This document shows, in pieces, positions 16,397-26,656 of a stretch of DNA of 64,000 nucleotides. The notes beneath the pieces were generated by a model. The model was not told the DNA's origin. It made no database searches and saw nothing but the letters and a program-made list of their open reading frames with translations. The position numbers were made by a program, and so were the translations under genes. This stretch comes from Thermoplasmata archaeon. Its GTDB lineage: Archaea; Thermoplasmatota; Thermoplasmata; GCA-020350865. How positions within the stretch are numbered: position 1 is the stretch's first letter; each line of letters starts with the position of its first letter. The stretch is from the NCBI GenBank assembly GCA_020348445.1, contig CP070751.1, forward strand, positions 1-64,000, read 5' to 3'.

Positions 16397-16804
16397 CTAT
16401 TGTGTCTCCACACTTTCTTCCTCAATCTTTTCTTCAGTTTCTTCTTGAGGCATTGATTTGGATTCCTTCCATTCCATAAAAGAGATCAGAAACATTACAA
16501 AGCCGACTATGAATACAAGGAGTAAGAAATAGGGGGATGGGTATTCTTCCTTGGGGCTATCTTCCTTTTGCTCTTCTTCATCTGCCTGGTCTTCCGGAGG
16601 GAGATCATCGAAAACGAAATTCCAGCTATTCTGGGCCTTTTGCAGAGTTCCCATGGAATTGGGAGATTCAATATCCATGGTGATGAACTTAGTGCCATCC
16701 CCCGAATGAGCGCTTGCTTCTTGTATCATGCAGAAAGACAAAATAGCAGCACCCATTAGAAATATCGCGGATATCTGCATGAATCTTATACTGATATATC
16801 TCAT
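16397..16804 (-). CDS. Hypothetical exported protein: signal peptide, acidic linker, C-terminal TM anchor
   Basis: Hydrophobic N-terminus ending ASA|H; YFLLLVFIVGFVMFLISF; ATGA overlap with upstream ORF. Confidence 0.7.
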   Translation of the reverse strand: MRYISIRFMQISAIFLMGAAILSFCMIQEASAHSGDGTKFITMDIESPNSMGTLQKAQNSWNFVFDDLPPEDQADEEEQKEDSPKEEYPSPYFLLLVFIVGFVMFLISFMEWKESKSMPQEETEEKIEEESVETQ

Positions 16805-17040
16805 GAATAACCCTCTAATTTAATGATGTAATTCACATAGTTAAAATATCTATCAATCTCCTGTTCTAAATATAATGGAAGGGGCTTTACGGGTTCTTCT
16901 TTGGGCTTTTCATCTTCATCATGCTCTTTTATCTTTTTATCTTTAGTTTTGCTATTCAGTTTTGCTTCTTTCTCCTCCTTACGCGCTAAAGTTATATACA
17001 TCATCAATACAGGAATTGCGGCTATCTGTGTAAATCTCAA
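16801..17040 (-). CDS. Small hypothetical protein (start uncertain)
   Basis: Stop overlaps next ATG (ATGA coupling); TTG start weak. Confidence 0.4.
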   Translation of the reverse strand: MRFTQIAAIPVLMMYITLARKEEKEAKLNSKTKDKKIKEHDEDEKPKEEPVKPLPLYLEQEIDRYFNYVNYIIKLEGYS

Positions 17041-17058: not shown

Positions 17059-17241
17059 TCATTCCCCCTTGATCAGTAAAAATGACACACCGAAATTCTC
17101 CTCTGCAAAATCTGAATTACCTCTATGTATATCAAATACCCTTAGCTCTTCATCCCAGGTTTCCCTAAGCTCGAGTTTTTCATGGTTTGCTTCGATCCCC
17201 TTTCTTATCGAAATCTGGGTTTTTAATGGGTTTTGTTTCAT
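17059..17241 (-). CDS. Small hypothetical protein
   Basis: GGAGG RBS before ATG 17241; first ORF downstream of palindrome/TATA at 17311-17343. Confidence 0.35.
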   Translation of the reverse strand: MKQNPLKTQISIRKGIEANHEKLELRETWDEELRVFDIHRGNSDFAEENFGVSFLLIKGE

Positions 17242-17323
17242 CCTTTTATCCTCCATTTTTCGTATCGAATCCGGTTCATGGCACATCGATTCTAAATTAT
17301 GACAGATTTAATTGATAACTCTT

Positions 17324-17343
17324 TGTGGCTACATGTGACCACA
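17324..17343 (-). promoter_or_regulatory. Palindromic operator TGT-N4-ACATGT-N4-ACA next to BRE/TATA-like box (site 1)
   Basis: tgtggctACATGTgaccaca; core 12 nt from TTAT (minus strand, 17318-17315). Confidence 0.7.
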
Positions 17344-17517
17344 GAGTGGTGCTCCTTCAAAGGGATCGTTAAAAAGTTACTCTTTAACTGAACTAGATAA
17401 AAAAGAAATATCAATTGCCCTAGCGCCAATAATTACTCTAAACAATGAGGACTTTTAAAATAATCATGTAATTCCATGGATCCTCACAAAAAAATACGAA
17501 GCTTATCTTTGTAGAAT

Positions 17518-17709
17518 TTACTCTATCTCATCCCCTCTTGAACGAATATATACGTTCAGTTCATCCAAATATAATCCAGTTCTGATACACCATCTAACAT
17601 ATGTGGACATGTCCGTATTCAGCCTATCGGCCTCTTTTTTTACATGCTCTAACAATTCTGGATCGATTCTCACCCTGATGGTCTTGGTATATTTTTCCTC
17701 AACCGTCAT
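17518..17709 (-). CDS. Ribbon-helix-helix (CopG/Arc-like) DNA-binding protein
   Basis: Alternating strand KTIRVRID, helix PELLEHVKKEAD, TDMSTYVRWCIRTGLYL; paralog of 17914 and 22573; GGTGA RBS. Confidence 0.8.
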   Translation of the reverse strand: MTVEEKYTKTIRVRIDPELLEHVKKEADRLNTDMSTYVRWCIRTGLYLDELNVYIRSRGDEIE

Positions 17710-17816
17710 TTATGATTCACCACTAGCGTCTATTTCATGCATTTTTCGATTCACGTATTATAATTCACAAGATCGTTTTCCAAACAGTGAATTGTTGTGA
17801 CTTTCATATAACCCTT

Positions 17817-17836
17817 TGTGACTACATGTGCCCACA
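17817..17836 (-). promoter_or_regulatory. Palindromic operator next to BRE/TATA-like box (site 2)
   Basis: tgtgactACATGTgcccaca; core 12 nt from TTATAT. Confidence 0.7.
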
Positions 17837-17913
17837 TGATTGCCTTTTCTTCCTCATCTGGAGGAAAGGGATTGTTCCCAATCATGGATTCTAAGATATG
17901 GCCATACATATTT

Positions 17914-18099
17914 CTACTCCTCGCTTTTTGATTTTAGAAACTTGTTCACGTCCTTTAGGTACAATCCCGTTCTGATACACCATCTTACATAGGTGGACAA
18001 ATCAGTGTCAAGCTTCTTGACTTCCTCTTTAACCAGGGCAAGAAGCTCAGGGTCCACCCTCACCTTGAGGATTTTGGTGTACTTCCCCTCTTTCTCCAT
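17914..18099 (-). CDS. Ribbon-helix-helix DNA-binding protein
   Basis: KILKVRVDPELL...TDLSTYVRWCIRTGLYL. Confidence 0.8.
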   Translation of the reverse strand: MEKEGKYTKILKVRVDPELLALVKEEVKKLDTDLSTYVRWCIRTGLYLKDVNKFLKSKSEE

Positions 18100-18224
18100 T
18101 TTATTTCCTCTGCAGTCTTACCATAATAATATTTCATACTAAAAAAGGTTCTTGATGGGTATTAAAGCCTGAGATTTGGCCAAATAAAAATAGGTTATAC
18201 GAGGCATATCGGGGTATTTTCTCA

Positions 18225-19097
18225 TCATTTGATGTCATTGGCCAGCTCCCTTCTTCTTTCTAGATTGGAGAAAACTGTCTTTTCATCCATGAACTCGTTC
18301 TCTGCCTCTGCAAAATATTCCACAGCCTTGAGTATCCCTTCTTTTGTGGGTTTGTTTATATCGAGTCCGGCCCTGGCTATCTCCTGACGAAGGATCACCA
18401 TGGCCATCCTGGAATCAGAAAATCCCTCGCAGAAATCAACGATTATTACATCAAGTGCGCCTATAGGGGTGGTTCGGTCAGAATTTCGGCGTATGCCTGT
18501 TGCCGTAAGGATTTCATAGACTTTTTTTACTGGATCTTCATACTTACCTTCAGCAAGAACAAGATGCCCAAGTGCTTCAAATGCCTCCTCAACATTAATT
18601 GCCTCCTTGGCACTTGTGGAATAATTTGTTTTCAATGTACCTCTGAGGATTGTATCAGCAGCGCTGTTGTACCTTTTGGCCATATCCTCCAATTCCTCGG
18701 GCTGGAACTCGAAGTCTTCTTTCAAATCCGACTTGTTGCACACGAAGATCATGGGCACCTCCTCCACGACCTTGAACAAAAGGGGAATCCAGTATCGCTC
18801 CAGACTTTTTAGGGTCTCCTTTCTTGTCAGGTCTGCTACCAGAATGGCACCGTCTACTCCCACGAACGTCCTGGTTTGAACGGCACTGTACCCTTCCCTG
18901 CCGATGAGATCCCAGATCACGAATGTGAGGTTGTGGGTCTGATCAGGTCTTTGGATCAAAAGGTTCTTTTTAGTGATCTTGCAGCCGACTGTGGAGATGT
19001 AGGAGCTTTCGAACACATCGAAGACATATCTTCGAATGAGGCTTGTCTTGCCCACTGCACTGTCCCCTAAAAGGGCTATCTTCTTTTTCACTGTCAA
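18225..19097 (-). CDS. Rab/Ras-like small GTPase with C-terminal domain (paralog 2)
   Basis: GDSAVGKTS, YISTVG, WDLIGRE, NKSD, SAK; TTG start after GGTGA. Confidence 0.9.
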   Translation of the reverse strand: MTVKKKIALLGDSAVGKTSLIRRYVFDVFESSYISTVGCKITKKNLLIQRPDQTHNLTFVIWDLIGREGYSAVQTRTFVGVDGAILVADLTRKETLKSLERYWIPLLFKVVEEVPMIFVCNKSDLKEDFEFQPEELEDMAKRYNSAADTILRGTLKTNYSTSAKEAINVEEAFEALGHLVLAEGKYEDPVKKVYEILTATGIRRNSDRTTPIGALDVIIVDFCEGFSDSRMAMVILRQEIARAGLDINKPTKEGILKAVEYFAEAENEFMDEKTVFSNLERRRELANDIK

Positions 19098-19266
19098 TTG
19101 TTCACCTTTCTTTGTACAATATTTTCGTATCCAATAAACTCTGGGCTATCGATTGGTGGCTAATGGCAATGAAAATACTTATGTTTATTTGTGATAAGAC
19201 ATAAGAAGGATTTAGCCATTCTTTTTCAATATAAAAAATAGAAAATATTAAGGTACGGCGACTGTT

Positions 19267-21168
19267 CTATATGCCCAATTTTTTCCTGTTCGCCTCTATA
19301 TGGGCCAAAATACCATCAGCAGCTTTGACTGGATCCTTCTCCACATTCATCACCCCGCCAGTCACCTGCTTGCAATCTTGAGTTAGGAGCTTCACAAGAT
19401 CCGGTCCTCCAGTTACAGTGGGAACTGGATTCACATAAGTATAGAGTCCAAAAGCCAAAGCGAACACGGCATCTATTGTAGCCTTCTGCTCCATGTACTC
19501 AGGTGCACACGCTGCAACGGGTAAATCTGGAATGGGCACATCTCCCAAGGCTTTGGAAACCGCCCCAACAAGATCAGCTAGTCGGCCTGTATCAGTGCAC
19601 GTTCCGAAACTGAGAACTGGGGGAATCCCAAGTTTCTCACATAGGCCTTTAAGTCCCGATCCAGCCAGTTCCTTTGCTTGGGGGCTGCAAAGACCAGCAA
19701 CCTGCACCCCACCGTTTCCGCAGCCCAAGGAAAGCACAAGGATGTCTCTTTTTATCAATTCCTTGACCATCCTTACAGTGTGAACATCCTGACCAGTGTC
19801 TCTTAGGGTTGTGCAGGAAACCATTCCCACCACGCCTCTTATTACTCCATCCTTTATCGCCTCAAGCAAGGGATCCAGTTTTCCCCCCAGGGCCTCTAGT
19901 ATACTTTCAGTGGAAAAACCCACAATCGCTTCTTTTACAGGCAATCCTGAGACAGGCTCATTTGATGACCTACGATCCTTGAAATTATCAATTGCCATCT
20001 CAAGAAGTCGGGAGGCTTGCGCAACTGCTCTATCGGGAATATAATCCACTCGATCCTCTACTCCTTCAAAGGCAACAACTTCACTTATGGGAACAAGTTT
20101 GAACTTATATTTTTGGGCATATATTGGATCAATGGGCATGGAGCAGTTCATATCACATGCAAAAAGATCAACACATCCGCTGGCCAAAACTGCTTCCTGC
20201 ATTATCCAGTTTCCTGTGAATCCATAAAAGACATCGTCCATCTCCCATCTTTGGATCATCTCCTGGCCAGTCTCGATATTAGCGATAATGCGTAATCCTT
20301 TGGCTCCAGCTTTTTTGGCTTTGTCCTGCCACTCTGGAGTTCGAGCCAATTGAACCATTGCAAATCCAAGAAAAGGCTCGTGGCCGTTGGGAAGGACGTT
20401 CACATAATCCGGATCCAATACTCCAAGATCCACACGCATATTATGAGGCCTTGGAATGCCGAATAAAATATCCTGGCAGAACTCGTTCACTATTTGACTT
20501 TGGTATGCCATTGCGATACCCAAACGCATGGCTTTAAGTGCGAGGGTTGCATAATAGCCATCCACGTTTGTTAGGCAGGAGCTTGTAGAGAACATTATCT
20601 CCCCGTGAATCCCACCTGGAAATATCCCCAATTTTTTCCAGAGCTCCTTACGCTCATTGGGAGCCAGGGCTTCAACAATTTCACTTGGCTCATCATACTT
20701 TCTATTGAATTCTTTCTCCACGAAATCACAAAGGCGAAGGGCAATTTCTTTTTCAGAGCCAGAGGTATCCACACCAAGGCGTGCAGCAAAGGTTTTCAGC
20801 TTCTCAGGCTCCTTGATCTCAAAGGGTGTTTTATCGTTTGCAGTTGCGTAAAGGGTTTTTATTGTCTGGTCTGTATGATAATGATAGGTGGAGGCACCCA
20901 TGACATTTCTGAGGAGCATCATGCGCATGGCCATTCCGTCTCCTGTGATGCCGCACACTCCCCTTTTGTCCTTTGATACGTCTGCACGGCACGGACCGTT
21001 TGAGCAGAGATCGCATCGAACACCGCCCATACAAAAAGGACAGCGTTTGTCGGGATCACCAAAGCCCTGGGCCTCGAAGCGGTCCCAGATATTTGTCATG
21101 TTGTCCGATTTGATCTTCTCGTACATTTTACGAACTGATTCATGATAAGAAATCCTATCGTCTTTCAT
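19267..21168 (-). CDS. cooS: Anaerobic CO dehydrogenase catalytic-subunit homolog, atypical (CooS-V-like)
   Basis: CPFC..CDLCSNGPC..CG clusters; NGHEP, DMNC, VSCTT, LGCG, GTCTD; Glu (NIETGQE) where canonical CooS has CCTGNE. Confidence 0.9.
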   Translation of the reverse strand: MKDDRISYHESVRKMYEKIKSDNMTNIWDRFEAQGFGDPDKRCPFCMGGVRCDLCSNGPCRADVSKDKRGVCGITGDGMAMRMMLLRNVMGASTYHYHTDQTIKTLYATANDKTPFEIKEPEKLKTFAARLGVDTSGSEKEIALRLCDFVEKEFNRKYDEPSEIVEALAPNERKELWKKLGIFPGGIHGEIMFSTSSCLTNVDGYYATLALKAMRLGIAMAYQSQIVNEFCQDILFGIPRPHNMRVDLGVLDPDYVNVLPNGHEPFLGFAMVQLARTPEWQDKAKKAGAKGLRIIANIETGQEMIQRWEMDDVFYGFTGNWIMQEAVLASGCVDLFACDMNCSMPIDPIYAQKYKFKLVPISEVVAFEGVEDRVDYIPDRAVAQASRLLEMAIDNFKDRRSSNEPVSGLPVKEAIVGFSTESILEALGGKLDPLLEAIKDGVIRGVVGMVSCTTLRDTGQDVHTVRMVKELIKRDILVLSLGCGNGGVQVAGLCSPQAKELAGSGLKGLCEKLGIPPVLSFGTCTDTGRLADLVGAVSKALGDVPIPDLPVAACAPEYMEQKATIDAVFALAFGLYTYVNPVPTVTGGPDLVKLLTQDCKQVTGGVMNVEKDPVKAADGILAHIEANRKKLGI

Positions 21169-21229
21169 TTTCTAATCCCCCAATTGGTAATGCCCACAAT
21201 GATTTGGATTATTTAAAACTAATGTGTAG

Positions 21230-21258
21230 ACTTTTTACTCCCAATCCAAAAGCCTCTT
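21230..21258. repeat. Direct repeat copy C of DUF438-gene 3' end
   Basis: actttttactcccaatccaaaagcctctt identical to 26657-26685. Confidence 0.85.
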
Positions 21259-21434
21259 GCCATGAGTTTTGAAAATGGATTGGGGGGATATTCACTGGAT
21301 TGAGGGAGTACCGTGCAAGCTATGTTATTAAAAAAAAGAAAAAGATATGCGGCGAGGGTTTTGGAAATAGTCTATAATTCATGTGTAACTACTGCTGGAT
21401 CCCACCGCGAGTCTTCTATTCTGAAGAACCTAAT

Positions 21435-22412
21435 CTATCTTTTCCAGTCAGGCCACCAACCTTTTGCGAGCTCCTCAGTCTGTTCAGTGCCGAAGTCGTA
21501 TATATATACAGTCCATCCAGAAACACGTCCGCCTCCAGAGATACGTTTAGGCTTGGAAAATGCCTGTTGGGAATCATCGGGCGACCATGAGGGATAACGA
21601 CTTTCTCCGCCGGAAACAAGCTGGGCTGTGGGGTTGCTCTGTGTCAAGTCCAGAGTGTATATAGCACTTCCATCAGATCCATCAAGAGCTGGCCATAACG
21701 TAAATGCCAGTTTATCTGGAGAACGAGACCAATCTAGATCCTTAATACCTGCCTGTTCATAGTCATAGACTGTCACTGGGTCTTCTTCTGAATCAATTGT
21801 TAAGATATTGATATACGATTTACCGTCGATTGCTGTTGTCCAGTCAACAAATGCTATTTCTGTACCATCAGGGCTCCAGGCAATATCCACTAGATAATGC
21901 CCTTCATCTGCAGTATAAAGTGTATCAACTGAACCGTCGCTGAGAGAAATTGTCTGAATCAGCCTTGGGCGCTCACTACCCGTAGAAGGATCGTAGAGCT
22001 TTTGAATAAAGGCTATTTCACCACCCAAAGGTGACCATGCAATACTATATTGGATGTCTTGACACAGGAGTGTTGGTTCGCCTGCCTGCACTTCTCCTTC
22101 ATTCACAGATATTTCAATAGTGTATAGATCATGTGGAATGTTCTTGGTATATGCTATTGATGTTCCATCCGGTGCCCAGGTTGGACTGTATAGATTACCT
22201 GCTGAATCCACTTCGACCTGGTTAGTTCCGTCAGCATTCATCACCATGAGTGCATCATTTTTACCTACTTTAATAAACGCTATTGCCGGATCTGCTGGTG
22301 GTTCCTCATCAGGTGGTGGTTTTGGCGGTTTTTTTGCGGTAGCCATGGGTATGGCCATGCTCACAAGCAAGGACACTAATACTATGCCGATTAACAGCTT
22401 TCCTAGTTTCAT
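21435..22412 (-). CDS. Secreted TolB-like (PD40/WD40) beta-propeller protein
   Basis: Signal peptide, KKPPKPPP linker, repeated P.WSPDG..IAF motifs. Confidence 0.85.
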   Translation of the reverse strand: MKLGKLLIGIVLVSLLVSMAIPMATAKKPPKPPPDEEPPADPAIAFIKVGKNDALMVMNADGTNQVEVDSAGNLYSPTWAPDGTSIAYTKNIPHDLYTIEISVNEGEVQAGEPTLLCQDIQYSIAWSPLGGEIAFIQKLYDPSTGSERPRLIQTISLSDGSVDTLYTADEGHYLVDIAWSPDGTEIAFVDWTTAIDGKSYINILTIDSEEDPVTVYDYEQAGIKDLDWSRSPDKLAFTLWPALDGSDGSAIYTLDLTQSNPTAQLVSGGESRYPSWSPDDSQQAFSKPKRISGGGRVSGWTVYIYDFGTEQTEELAKGWWPDWKR

Positions 22413-22480
22413 ATTCTTTTCCTCCGATTATCTTTCTAAATAGTCAAAAATCCTAAATCAGATTAATAAAGATAAAATTT

Positions 22481-22500
22481 TGTCGGTACATGTACATACA
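22481..22500 (-). promoter_or_regulatory. Palindromic operator next to BRE/TATA-like box (site 3)
   Basis: tgtcggtACATGTacataca; core 12 nt from TTATCT. Confidence 0.65.
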
Positions 22501-22572: not shown

Positions 22573-22764
22573 TCAATATAGCTTTCCTTTCCTCGATCTT
22601 AACTCTACATTCATCTCCTTCAAATAAAATCCAGTGCGTATGCACCCTCTGATAAACGCGGATATATCGGTCCCTTGTACCTTTGCCTTCTTTTTCACTT
22701 CTTCAAGGAGTTCCGGTTCAATTCTTATGGTGAGAACTTTAGTGTACTTTCCTTCCTTTTCCAT
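22573..22764 (-). CDS. Ribbon-helix-helix DNA-binding protein
   Basis: MEKEGKYTKVLTIRIEPELL...TDISAFIRGCIRTGFYL; 18 nt after GTPase stop. Confidence 0.8.
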   Translation of the reverse strand: MEKEGKYTKVLTIRIEPELLEEVKKKAKVQGTDISAFIRGCIRTGFYLKEMNVELRSRKGKLY

Positions 22765-22782: not shown

Positions 22783-23661
22783 TCAGTCTCCAACAATGCT
22801 TTCGGCCCACTCTCTTCTTCTTTTCATATTGGCTAAAACAATATCTCGATCTTTAAACTCACTCTCTGCTTCTGCTAAATACTCAACAGCTGTTAGAATC
22901 TTCTCTTTTGTGGGATTGTTAACATCGATTTTCGCTCTTGCAAGTTCCTGGCGCAGGATTAGCATTGCTATTCTCGAATCCTTGAAATCCTTGCAGAAAT
23001 CCACCATTATAGCATCCAATGCACCAATGGGCGTTGTCTTATCCAAATTTCTCTGAATACCTGTTGCAAAGAGAGTTTCAAGGAGAATCTCAACAGTATT
23101 ATCTGGTTTATACTCACTTAGCATAAAATTCCCCAAGCTCTCAAAGGCGCATTCGACATTGTTCCCATCTTTTGCACTGGTCGCATAGCAGGATTTTAAT
23201 CCCTGAAATGTTGTTTTAAGGGATTGACCGCTGTATCTTCCCGCCAAATCCTCCATATCCTCGAATCCGAACTCGTATTTTCCTTTCAGATCGGATTTGT
23301 TACAAGTAAACACCAAGGGCACATTCTCTACTATCTTGAACAAAAAAGGAATCCAATATTTCTCAAGGTTCTCCAGGGTCTCCTTTCTCGTAAGATCCGC
23401 CACAAGGATTGCACCTTCCACACCCACAAAGGTCCTGGCATGAAGGGCGTGATATCCCTCTCTACCGATAATGTCCCAGATCATAAATTTGACATCTACA
23501 TTAGCGTTGGATCTATGAATGGAAAATTCCTTCATGGTTACCTTGCTTCCTATTGTGGAGGTATAGGAATCCTCGAACTGGTCGAAAACGAATCTTCGAA
23601 TGAGGCTGGTTTTGCCTACGGCGCTGTCGCCGAGCAGGACGATTTTCTTTTTTATTGCCAA
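22783..23661 (-). CDS. Rab/Ras-like small GTPase with C-terminal domain (paralog 3)
   Basis: GDSAVGKTS, YTSTIG, WDIIGRE, NKSD, SAK. Confidence 0.9.
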   Translation of the reverse strand: MAIKKKIVLLGDSAVGKTSLIRRFVFDQFEDSYTSTIGSKVTMKEFSIHRSNANVDVKFMIWDIIGREGYHALHARTFVGVEGAILVADLTRKETLENLEKYWIPFLFKIVENVPLVFTCNKSDLKGKYEFGFEDMEDLAGRYSGQSLKTTFQGLKSCYATSAKDGNNVECAFESLGNFMLSEYKPDNTVEILLETLFATGIQRNLDKTTPIGALDAIMVDFCKDFKDSRIAMLILRQELARAKIDVNNPTKEKILTAVEYLAEAESEFKDRDIVLANMKRRREWAESIVGD

Positions 23662-23700: not shown

Positions 23701-26514
23701 CTACAAATCCTTGAGCGCTGCTCTCACCTTCTCTTTTTTCTTTTCCAACTTCAATTCCTTGTAAATATCGATTGCCTTGTTTAGTTGTTCTTTCGCTTTA
23801 TTAGGATCTCCCTTAGCCTTCCACATCAATCCAAATTCGAAGTGGGATTCTGCCAATTCCCTTTTTATTCCAATTCCCTTAAAAATCTTTACGCTCTCTT
23901 CAAAATTCTCAATGGATTCCTTCCATTTTCCCTGGTTTGTAAATATAATTCCTAAAATTCTTCTCGAGCTTGCTAGGGTCACTTTTGAACCAATCTCTTT
24001 AGATAGTTCAAATGATCGTTTGCAGAAATCAAATGCTCTTGTCAGATCCTTTTTTCTAAGATAGGCTTCCGCTATAAACCAATAGTTGTAAGCCATCAGT
24101 ATCCGGTAGCCGATCTTTATAACTATTTTCATGCTCTTTTCGAATTGATCAAGGGCTTTGTCATATTCTCCTTTATAAAAGTGTGCAACACCAATGTTGT
24201 GTAAAATTACAGCAATCCTCTTTTGGTCACCCATCCTCTCATGTATTTCTTTGGTCCTATCATAGTATTCAAGGGCTTTGTCATACTCTTCTATTTCAAC
24301 ATGAACAATACCAATGTTCATCATGTGAATGGCAGTAAATTGCATATCACCGATTTGCTCCGAAATGCCTAGACTTTTTTTGTAGTATTCGAGAGCTTCA
24401 TTATATTTTCCAATCCACATATGAATTATGCCGATATTGTTGAGGGACCCTGCGATTCCTTTTTTATCTTCTATTATTTCCCTTATCTTAAGGCTCTTAT
24501 CGTAATATCCAAGCGCCATTTCTATTTCTCCTCTTTCTTGGTGCACAGTGCCAATTAGATTTAGGGCATCCGCTTTTTCCCTGCATTCCTCATCTCTAAC
24601 CAAGAATAGTGCTTCATTACAAATTTTTATTGATTCATTATATCCTCCCATATGCCTATGACAGTTCCCAATCCCAATCTTAATCTCAGCTTTTTTCTTA
24701 TTATCAATGCTCAATTCCAATGCACGCTCGTAAGCCTTGATACTATTCTGATAATCCCCAATCAAGGAATAAATACCTGCCATTTCTTCGAGTGTTTTCC
24801 TCCTCTTTTTCGGATTATCCTCAAGTCCAAGAGCATAGGAATAGAATCTTATTGATTCTTCATTTGAATAATCCTTCTTTGCCTTCTCCGCCGCTTTAAG
24901 GAGATAGTGAAGTGCTTTGTCCTTATTCTTGCATTGATAATAATGAAATGCTAAATCTTCAACCACTTCATCCAGATTATCTTGGCTCAGTGTCTCAACC
25001 GAGTTTGCGATTATCGAGTGATAATCCCTTCTCAATTCTTCTGGTATTTCGCTGTAAAGCACCTCTTTTACTTTGGCATGGTCGAACTTGAAATATCCAT
25101 TATGGGATTTGAGTAATCTATGAACTTGCTCTAAACTTCTCAACTGCTCTAAAAGTTGAGTTCTGTTCGTATCCAGGGCATAGGTTAGGATCGATGATGT
25201 GAACGTTTCTCCGATGATAGAAGCATAATCCAATACCTTCCTGTCTTCTTTTTCCAATCTGTTCAATCTTCTTTCAATCACGTTGTATATTTTGGATGGG
25301 ATTTCGATATCTTTTAGATCTTTGGCTAACTTCCATGTTCCCTCATCTTCCAAAATGATCTTTTCATCGACTAGGAATTTTATTAAAAGGATAAAGAACA
25401 ATGGATTCCCTTCGGTCTCCTTGTAGATTCGATTCTTAAATTCATCAGTGAAATCGATTTTTCCAAGCAGGACAGACAAAAATTCGTCCATAATCTCTTC
25501 GGGTAATCTCGCAAGCTCCATCTTTTTCAACAGATCCTCGCGGTCCATCAACTGCATGGTTCCCACAAGAGGATGACTCTTTTCATCCATTGAAGCAACA
25601 TCCTCAGGTCTATAAGTGCCCATAATAAATAGCCCAGTCTCTCTCGTGTTTCTAGCGAGGTAGTGCATTAGAGCTAAGGATGATAGGTCTGTCCATTGTA
25701 AGTCTTCTATGCATAAAAGAGTGGGCATTTGCTGTGCCTGCCTTATCAATCCCAAAGAGACATTCTCGAATAATAAATTCCTTCTAATCTTTGGATCATC
25801 TTTACCATAATAGATACCGTCATACTTTCCGGATGTGATAAGAGGTTTGAGGAGCTCGTCGATTCCAGCAACCTTTTTTTCGTCACCACCCCATTTCTCA
25901 AGGATTCGTTTAAAAGTTTTTGTTATCTTTAATAGGATCTCTCTCATATCGTTTAGCAGGAATTCATTTTCTCTTCCTGTTAGTATAACCACAAGATTGG
26001 TATCCTTATAATTATCGATTAATATACGATAATTCTGGTATCCTAACGAATTCAAAGTTCCTTTTTCTTCCTCTCCAGACAGCTTTGAAAGAGATTCATT
26101 AAGAAAGTCAGTTATAGTGGTAAACATTGATGCAAAAACATCAGGATTAAGTTCTGTTTCTTCTCTCACAAGATTTCTTATTAATATGCCCGCATTGGTT
26201 ACCAGATAAACAGCTTCCACTCGTGGGGCTTCCTCTGCAAAAAGCGATTCCAGGCCTACAGATCTCAGGGCTTCCATAATGGGCATGAAGGGAGTAAGGG
26301 ATTCATACATGCAGTTACCTGACAAGATCTGGAAGCCTTTGGATTGAGCAATCTCTTTCAGCTCGTTTACCAAACGGGTCTTTCCGATTCCTGCCTCCCC
26401 TGAGATGAATATTGTCCTTCCTTGCCCTTCCATGGCTCTTTCTAGATAAGACTGCAGTTCTCTGAGTTCATCCTCGCGACCAACCATCTTGGGTTGGAGA
26501 TCTAGATTCTGCAT
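23701..26514 (-). CDS. STAND/AAA_16-type ATPase with inserted longin/roadblock-like domain and C-terminal TPRs
   Basis: MVGREDE, Walker A GEAGIGKT, Walker B LLCIEDLQW, GNPLF, TPR array (IAGSLNNIG...); start MQNLDL at 26514. Confidence 0.85.
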   Translation of the reverse strand: MQNLDLQPKMVGREDELRELQSYLERAMEGQGRTIFISGEAGIGKTRLVNELKEIAQSKGFQILSGNCMYESLTPFMPIMEALRSVGLESLFAEEAPRVEAVYLVTNAGILIRNLVREETELNPDVFASMFTTITDFLNESLSKLSGEEEKGTLNSLGYQNYRILIDNYKDTNLVVILTGRENEFLLNDMREILLKITKTFKRILEKWGGDEKKVAGIDELLKPLITSGKYDGIYYGKDDPKIRRNLLFENVSLGLIRQAQQMPTLLCIEDLQWTDLSSLALMHYLARNTRETGLFIMGTYRPEDVASMDEKSHPLVGTMQLMDREDLLKKMELARLPEEIMDEFLSVLLGKIDFTDEFKNRIYKETEGNPLFFILLIKFLVDEKIILEDEGTWKLAKDLKDIEIPSKIYNVIERRLNRLEKEDRKVLDYASIIGETFTSSILTYALDTNRTQLLEQLRSLEQVHRLLKSHNGYFKFDHAKVKEVLYSEIPEELRRDYHSIIANSVETLSQDNLDEVVEDLAFHYYQCKNKDKALHYLLKAAEKAKKDYSNEESIRFYSYALGLEDNPKKRRKTLEEMAGIYSLIGDYQNSIKAYERALELSIDNKKKAEIKIGIGNCHRHMGGYNESIKICNEALFLVRDEECREKADALNLIGTVHQERGEIEMALGYYDKSLKIREIIEDKKGIAGSLNNIGIIHMWIGKYNEALEYYKKSLGISEQIGDMQFTAIHMMNIGIVHVEIEEYDKALEYYDRTKEIHERMGDQKRIAVILHNIGVAHFYKGEYDKALDQFEKSMKIVIKIGYRILMAYNYWFIAEAYLRKKDLTRAFDFCKRSFELSKEIGSKVTLASSRRILGIIFTNQGKWKESIENFEESVKIFKGIGIKRELAESHFEFGLMWKAKGDPNKAKEQLNKAIDIYKELKLEKKKEKVRAALKDL

Positions 26515-26656
26515 CTTCCCCCCACAATGATTTATTATCCCCGGGCTATTTATATACAAAACGTTTTTAAAATATATAAGGTTATATGTAAATTTGTGAG
26601 ATTTTAAAAAATATGAGAGGAATTTAGCAATGTTTCTAAAATATTGCATTTTTATA

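Follow-up and report, generated by a model that had tools for sequence, protein, structure and literature searches.

In the first 64,000 nucleotides of a Thermoplasmata metagenome-assembled genome (MAG; GenBank assembly GCA_020348445.1, contig CP070751.1, positions 1 to 64,000, the whole of the DNA analysed here and referred to below as the window), three copies of a 20-nucleotide element lie downstream of genes for small ribbon-helix-helix (RHH) proteins, each with a TATA-like box at a constant distance on its downstream side. Our analysis indicates that this 20-mer is very probably the operator of a small, previously unnamed RHH family of uncultured Thermoplasmata. As a preliminary description of this DNA had proposed, the 20-mer (hereafter the box) has the properties of a cis-regulatory element held at a fixed distance 5' of a TATA-like box. 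It travels with the RHH family across genomes; physical linkage of RHH gene and box recurs in more than 20 loci. The three copies in the window, with their scores against a position weight matrix (PWM), and the TATA-like boxes that accompany them, which were assigned from sequence, are as follows.

17324..17343, minus strand: putative operator O1, two tandem 10-bp units 5' of a small-protein operon; exact match, PWM score 30.6
17315..17318, minus strand: TTAT of TATA-like box, 5 nt past O1
17817..17836, minus strand: putative operator O2, 5' of the second (B-type) RHH gene; exact match, PWM score 30.8
17808..17811, minus strand: TTAT of TATA-like box, 5 nt past O2
22481..22500, minus strand: putative operator O3, 5' of a secreted PD40 propeller gene; exact match, PWM score 18.0
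22472..22475, minus strand: TTAT of TATA-like box, 5 nt past O3

The pattern originally put forward, TGT-N4-ACATGT-N4-ACA, has no exact match in the window beyond these three sites, and none of 100 dinucleotide-preserving shuffles of the window contained one, against an expectation of 0. Only the strict pattern is special in this respect: with two mismatches tolerated the window holds four matches, which is the level expected by chance. The preliminary description was also right that 12 nt separate ACATGT from TTAT at all three sites (on the minus strand: box, 5 nt, TTAT), and wrong in one detail of the interval, which reads A-N4-CAAA-N3 rather than A-N3-CAAA-N3. Each box lies 3' of an RHH gene, 72-174 nt past the genes at 17518-17709, 17914-18099 and 22573-22764, which are encoded on the minus strand like all genes near the boxes, and the first ATG of the next open reading frame follows TTAT after 32-102 nt. 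O3 is the most divergent copy, the inner bases of its units not being GG/CC. A short block, GATGTGCCAT, stands near the expected transcription start at window positions 17278-17287 (minus strand); the same block (GATGTGTAAT in locus L008) recurs ~30 nt past TTAT in the orthologous promoter of a congeneric genome (G003) and in a non-orthologous promoter of that genome (L014).

We determined the anatomy of the element from 26 non-redundant sites in about 15 Thermoplasmata genomes and metagenome contigs. Across this set, information is confined to the 20-mer, the AA that comes next and TTAT (1.4-1.9 bits per position), with ~0 bits in the 20 nt preceding the box and in the 45 nt following TTAT, and every one of the 26 full sites ends 5 nt before TTAT. 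Past TTAT nothing is conserved except a single A, and the TATA box is often GC-rich. Rather than a single long palindrome, the box is best seen as a tandem pair of 10-bp units, TGTRGnCACA, at a distance of one helical turn. Positions i and i+10 have the same consensus and the outer and central positions are symmetric, while the cross-pairs 5-16, 6-15 and 7-14, on which a hairpin would depend, are complementary in only 35-58% of sites, which is evidence against an RNA stem. The unit proximal to TTAT is better conserved than the distal one, and it is the proximal unit that is kept in weak sites. A reading of the central ACRYGT as a restriction site was discarded, since the element keeps to promoters and its centre varies between AT, CG, TA, GA and GC.

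The source MAG (G000), of which the window is the start, consists of 354 contigs strung together, with 100 N at each join, into a single sequence of 5.16 Mb, and distances between contigs are therefore meaningless. The assembly has 82% completeness and carries five tRNA-Gln genes among its 38 tRNAs; more than one genome may be present in the bin. A scan of the entire string for TGTN4ACATGTN4ACA, which the preliminary description had suggested as a check, returned five exact sites and none in the reversed control. A sixth strict copy, at 5075580, has one central mismatch (ACGTGT), and at all six strict sites 5 nt and then TTAT follow on the side of the downstream gene. Relaxing the pattern gave no excess over the reversed control (11 versus 16 matches with one mismatch, 158 versus 202 with two), so that only strict matches, or PWM matches combined with TTAT, are meaningful. 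With the PWM, 9-10 matches scoring >=20 were found in the genome, compared with one in reversed controls. The three strict sites outside the window lie within 11 kb of one another on another contig, and the genes behind them encode an S8 peptidase and two NosD-like beta-helix proteins, all with signal peptides. Two weaker PWM sites keep the proximal unit and the 5-nt spacer, one at 5085993, 5' of an RHH gene at 5086123, and one at 1664050, 5' of a gene for a secreted PKD-repeat protein. The statement that the box occurs only after RHH genes describes the window correctly and does not extend to the genome, where the strict sites at 5075580 and 5077267, two of the six, come after genes for a GTPase and an S8 peptidase; it is therefore a property of the window rather than a rule. 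Scans for sigma-70-type promoters and intrinsic terminators, which are not relevant to an archaeon, gave results at or below chance.

Linkage of the box to the RHH family extends well beyond this assembly. For nearly all of the 26 sites, a homologue of the family is encoded no more than 400 nt away, and in G000, G003, G001, G083 and G066 the box stands 10-400 nt from the RHH genes whose flanks are readable. The combination of box, 5-nt spacer and TTAT or TTAA is found beside homologues in two congeneric genomes, G003 (four exact sites) and G001, and in G083 and G066, which represent two other families of the class. We kept a further Thermoplasmata MAG chromosome locus (L047, a genome contig) and nine metagenome loci out of PWM building. 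The box adjoins an RHH homologue at L047 and in seven of the nine metagenome loci, the other two having a degenerate box (L056) or no box (L061), and together these held-out loci contain 11 sites scoring >=20 in about 35 kb, where roughly 0.01 would be expected at the reversed-control rate. Among the 401 genomes of the class, the RHH profile matches 13 and a loose version of the box followed by TTA matches 16, with all matches of the GTGG..CAC type falling in the RHH-positive genomes G000, G003, G001, G066 and G083. Orthologous spacers of G000, G003 and G001 have diverged save for a conserved island that spans the box, AAA and TTAT: O1 is conserved in the orthologous spacer of G003, and O2 in those of both G003 and G001.

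The loose-pattern matches in two other genomes, G339 and G367, belong to another element and were set aside. They fall in a true inverted repeat, TGTGGTAAC-CA-GTCACCACA followed by AACCGTTTAT, situated 5' of a gene for a TrmB-like regulator (L072:1500-1530 in G339 and L073 in G367), and this repeat is likely to be the regulator's own operator. A NikR-like gene lies 5' of the repeat in G339 (L072).

The RHH genes of the window are the following.

17914..18099, minus strand: A-type RHH gene (61 aa), directly after a GTPase gene and with no operator upstream; RHH proteins are its top matches by AlphaFold2 (AF2) model and Foldseek
17518..17709, minus strand: B-type RHH gene (63 aa), behind operator O2; by sequence comparison
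22573..22764, minus strand: A-type RHH gene (63 aa) belonging to the second module; Pfam RHH_1, 24.8 bits (cutoff 20.5)

The three proteins are paralogues, 54-59% identical, from a total of five in the genome; A-type members start with MEKEGKYTK and B-type members with MT.EEKYTK. The other two window paralogues gave CopG_antitoxin/NikA-like Pfam matches below cutoff (CopG_antitoxin, 23.4-23.7 bits against 28). The AF2 model (mean per-residue confidence, pLDDT, 71) shows an extended N-terminus and then helices at 17-30 and 34-44, with an extra helix at 48-59, and its top Foldseek matches are almost all RHH proteins (CopA, Arc, CopG, MazE, ORF56 and NikR; template modelling (TM) scores of 0.65-0.75 on the target), with weak E-values of 0.26-1.6, as expected for a protein of ~60 residues. 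Taken together, the Pfam match of one paralogue, the predicted structure and the Foldseek matches place the proteins in the RHH fold. Beyond the fold, assignments were few. No NCBIfam family cutoff was reached: the aCcr1 family model (aCcr1_fam, NF053762) gave 20 bits against a cutoff of 60, for one paralogue only, which puts the proteins outside that family by this model, and no CdrS model appeared among NCBIfam matches up to E 0.1. A sequence search of the PDB gave a single marginal match (2kke, E 0.022), and we found no forms fused to a GTPase or another domain among longer proteins, which is weak evidence. We likewise found no published description of this RHH family, of its box or of a GTPase-linked RHH in Thermoplasmata.

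We rejected the possibility that these proteins are antitoxins of type II toxin-antitoxin systems (of the CopG, ParD or RelB type). Quite apart from the sub-threshold antitoxin model, the genes downstream encode a second RHH protein, a secreted propeller, protease or beta-helix protein, or small proteins without a family match, and the putative operator lies 3' of the RHH gene and not at its own promoter.

The residues with which the strand of Arc contacts DNA, Gln9, Asn11 and Arg13, align with positions 10, 12 and 14 of the present family. Of 26 family members, 25 have Lys or Arg at position 12; the exception is the RHH encoded at 22573-22764, which has Thr there and also Gly in place of the family's Trp-40. 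This Thr-12 protein adjoins O3, the sole operator without GG/CC in both units, and the pairing, one suggestive case of co-variation, may reflect paralogue-specific recognition. In G003, one RHH paralogue (L020/L040, G003:C333:2096-2281) is interrupted by an in-frame stop and lacks a box on its downstream side; it is probably a decaying copy.

The remaining genes of the two window modules, with the small genes behind O1, are listed below.

18225..19097, minus strand: Ras/Roc-like GTPase with a C-terminal four-helix domain, 5' of the A-type RHH gene; Pfam Ras 2.4e-29
22783..23661, minus strand: paralogous Ras/Roc-like GTPase of the second module; by family search
23701..26649, minus strand: STAND (signal transduction ATPase with numerous domains) protein, AAA_16 plus MalT-like tetratricopeptide repeats (TPR), heading the second module; by domain search
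21435..22412, minus strand: predicted target, PD40 beta-propeller protein with an N-terminal signal peptide; by family search
17059..17241, minus strand: predicted target, small protein with no family match; start set at a conserved GGAGG-ATG
16801-17040 and 16397-16804, minus strand: small genes after 17059-17241, the last with a hydrophobic, signal-like N-terminus

Two layouts recur: GTPase, RHH-A, box, RHH-B, box, target in the first, and STAND, GTPase, RHH-A, box, target in the second. The first gene past the box encodes either a B-type RHH paralogue or a signal-peptide protein, the latter class comprising the PD40 propeller, the S8 protease, NosD-like beta-helix and PKD-repeat proteins and the small proteins of the first window module; similar signal-peptide genes with the same box in their promoters are present in G083 and G066. 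The A-type RHH genes, which directly follow a Ras/Roc-like GTPase gene, have no box before either the gene or its operon. No DNA-binding domain or helix-turn-helix (HTH) was detected in the STAND proteins. The GTPase G-domain was modelled poorly (pLDDT <50), leaving the C-terminal domain alone usable; this domain is a predicted four-helix bundle (pLDDT 70-93) with generic helical-bundle matches only (Z <=6.7). Among the module proteins, then, a recognised DNA-binding fold is present in the RHH alone, which makes it the only candidate binder of that kind.

Related GTPase genes occur elsewhere in the genome. Whole-genome tblastn found Ras-like paralogues, about 17 of them long and about 15 short, with tandem arrays of five to six paralogues of the same long GTPase, C-terminal domain included, at 3131573-3137273 and 3703394-3706189 and no RHH homologue near these arrays. 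A lone fragment that encodes just the GTPase C-terminal domain, at L006:8776-9207 (genome 5078776-5079207), is flanked by a beta-helix target gene on one side and a tandem pair of STAND genes on the other.

How, then, might the box work? With one helical turn from one tandem unit to the next, two RHH dimers would occupy the same DNA face as neighbours, and because the proximal unit ends 5 nt before TTAT, the bound protein would abut the TFB-recognition element (BRE) and TATA box, at roughly -37 to -56. We propose that the A-type RHH would bind the box at the promoters of the B-type RHH gene and of the secreted-protein genes, that the bound tetramer would help transcription factor B (TFB) and the TATA-binding protein (TBP) to assemble, and so activate, and that the module as a whole may be a split version of the STAND activators of the MalT type. 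We give this combined explanation (operator, tandem RHH dimers and activation) an even chance of being correct, and activation by the RHH from the box likewise seems to us about evenly poised. The preliminary description spoke of an RHH activator regulon; the regulon, a small one, is well supported, and activation is plausible. Its premise that an activating archaeal RHH would be unusual is outdated, since the RHH protein CdrS is an activator with a palindromic site at -41 to -50 (PMC8406309). Also in favour of activation, the box lies 5' of the TATA-like element and never covers it; the aCcr1 repressor binds 3' of the TATA box (PMC9976878). The weakly conserved core promoter past TTAT and the MalT-like lead gene that lacks a DNA-binding domain plausibly count on the same side.

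Several observations weigh against an activating RHH at this site. Genome-wide, an A-rich stretch at -6 to -3 before TTTATA was found upstream of long open reading frames, and we took this A-enrichment upstream of TTTATA/TTATA as the BRE reference, the upstream regions of tRNA genes having yielded no usable promoter consensus; the last CA of the operator and the conserved AA coincide with this A-rich BRE position. Since the 3' end of the operator overlaps the BRE, the 5-nt spacing would be kept under either sign and cannot decide between activation and repression. In three beta-helix promoters, from G000, G001 and a metagenome contig (L005:1548-1565, genome 5086451; L018; and L060:~876-893), a single extra unit, GTGGYCACA, lies 22 nt past the first TATA-like box and has a TTAT of its own after a further 5 nt. 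This unit could be a second, tandem activated promoter or a repressing operator at the start site, and its place near the expected start suits repression. The majority of characterised RHH proteins (Arc, Mnt, MetJ, CopG, SvtR, aCcr1) are repressors (PMC5569661, PMC9976878), and the TATA assignment, made from the letters of the DNA, is putative. The association of family and box is also imperfect: a sister RHH subgroup ending in GLYF..SRE has the same strand residues, with the box absent throughout four genomes, and of two loci of the GLYL type one has a decayed box and one has none.

The RHH genes of the GLYF..SRE subgroup (L046, L051, L053 and L037) share a conserved upstream stretch with GGCGGTGACCTGGCACC, together with GGAGGTCACC at the ribosome-binding site; this could be another operator or a leader structure.

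The strongest rival keeps the same operator and the same RHH binders and reverses the sign: the tetramer would overlap the upstream edge of the BRE and block TFB until a GTPase/STAND signal relieved it, with a further dimer at some promoters on the single unit at the start site. We regard repression of this sort as a serious contender, if one we would put below even chances. It would account directly for the 3' end of the operator on the A-rich BRE position, for the extra units about 22 nt past the TATA box and for the rule among characterised RHH proteins, and an operator before a paralogous RHH gene resembles classical negative feedback. It sits less well with the absence of a box at the operon promoters of the A-type RHH genes and with core promoters that look weak past TTAT.

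A different binder, or a different kind of element, is unlikely even when the two are taken together. The former would make the RHH genes mere neighbours of a box bound by another module or host protein, such as an unlinked transcription factor or the four-helix domain at the C-terminus of the GTPase. In its favour, the strict sites at 5075580 and 5077267 have no RHH gene immediately upstream, and GTPase, STAND and RHH genes co-occur, so that phylogenetic profiles cannot separate the candidate binders. However, an RHH gene lies about 9-10.5 kb from both of these orphan sites on the same contig, the RHH alone brings a recognised DNA-binding fold to a module whose GTPase bundle is generic and whose STAND protein has no HTH, and tandem palindromic units one helical turn apart are the layout expected for RHH dimers; we therefore find a non-RHH binder improbable. 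That the element is an RNA (a 3' untranslated region hairpin acting in termination or stability) or a recombination or mobile-element site moving gene cassettes is very improbable: the outer and central positions of the 20-mer do form a palindrome, but the inner stem has no compensatory pattern, AA-N3-TTAT rather than a T-tract follows the box, always on the side of the downstream gene, several sites per locus lie in one orientation upstream of open reading frames, and, as to a viral or mobile origin, 2.9 million viral contigs gave one match, on a contig in which tblastn found no RHH or GTPase gene, and the RHH homologue was not found in phage records.

It is conceivable, though we think it rather doubtful, that an archaeal Ras-like GTPase pathway has its transcriptional output at the box: the STAND-TPR sensor would set the state of the GTPase, the GTPase would gate the A-type RHH, and the RHH would recruit TFB/TBP and so switch on the B-type RHH gene, in feed-forward or feedback, and the genes for secreted surface proteins. 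Were this true, operator variants such as O3 with its Thr-12 RHH would insulate parallel modules. A transcription factor and its operator would by themselves be an ordinary system, and it is the attachment to a STAND-GTPase pair that lends this one its interest. Very few regulator-operator pairs are available for uncultured archaea, and here the element is a precise, easily synthesised 20-mer with a fixed 5-nt spacer. Moreover, its defined promoters and target genes offer a readable output for the otherwise opaque STAND-GTPase-RHH modules of Thermoplasmata, which makes control of transcription by a prokaryotic Ras-like GTPase testable in vitro.

Among known systems, MetJ on its metboxes, Arc and Mnt of phage P22 and CopG of pMV158 bind tandem short palindromic units, one dimer to each, on the same face of the DNA. 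The present system has in common with these the RHH fold, as predicted, and an operator made of repeated, internally symmetric subsites on one DNA face. It differs in that the unit is 10 bp (TGTRGnCACA) rather than the 8 bp of the metbox, the host is an archaeon with TBP and TFB, the site lies 5' of the TATA box and not over the promoter, no co-repressor is known, and there is no sequence match at the level of family. (RHH operator use is summarised, with the review of Schreiter and Drennan cited, in PMC5569661.) CdrS of haloarchaea is likewise a small archaeal RHH with a symmetric motif 5' of promoters, and has been read as an activator, its sites lying in that position at genes whose expression falls on CdrS depletion, in a regulon of ftsZ and other genes (PMC8406309); the present box would be centred at about -45. 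In contrast to CdrS, the RHH family and the motif are different ones, the neighbours are GTPase and STAND genes rather than ftsZ2, and the predicted targets are secreted proteins rather than cell-division genes. The small RHH proteins aCcr1 (of Sulfolobales, with viral homologues), SvtR and AvtR also use short palindromic promoter boxes (PMC9976878, PMC5569661), whereas the present proteins fall short of the aCcr1 family model and their box lies 5' of TATA. Ptr2 and TFB-RF1 occupy sites directly 5' of the core promoter and activate by recruiting initiation factors (PMC5569661), but these are Lrp-type or HTH proteins and not RHH, and recruitment is only proposed here. As in STAND activators of the MalT/LAL type, the lead gene encodes AAA_16 with MalT-like TPR, and repeated boxes lie 5' of target promoters; here, however, the STAND protein is without a DNA-binding domain, and DNA binding would fall to an RHH encoded separately, the gene for a Ras-like GTPase lying between theirs. 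By analogy, then, the box would work as an RHH tetramer operator of the MetJ/Arc/CopG kind placed at an archaeal BRE/TATA promoter, in a position that resembles those of CdrS, Ptr2 and TFB-RF1.

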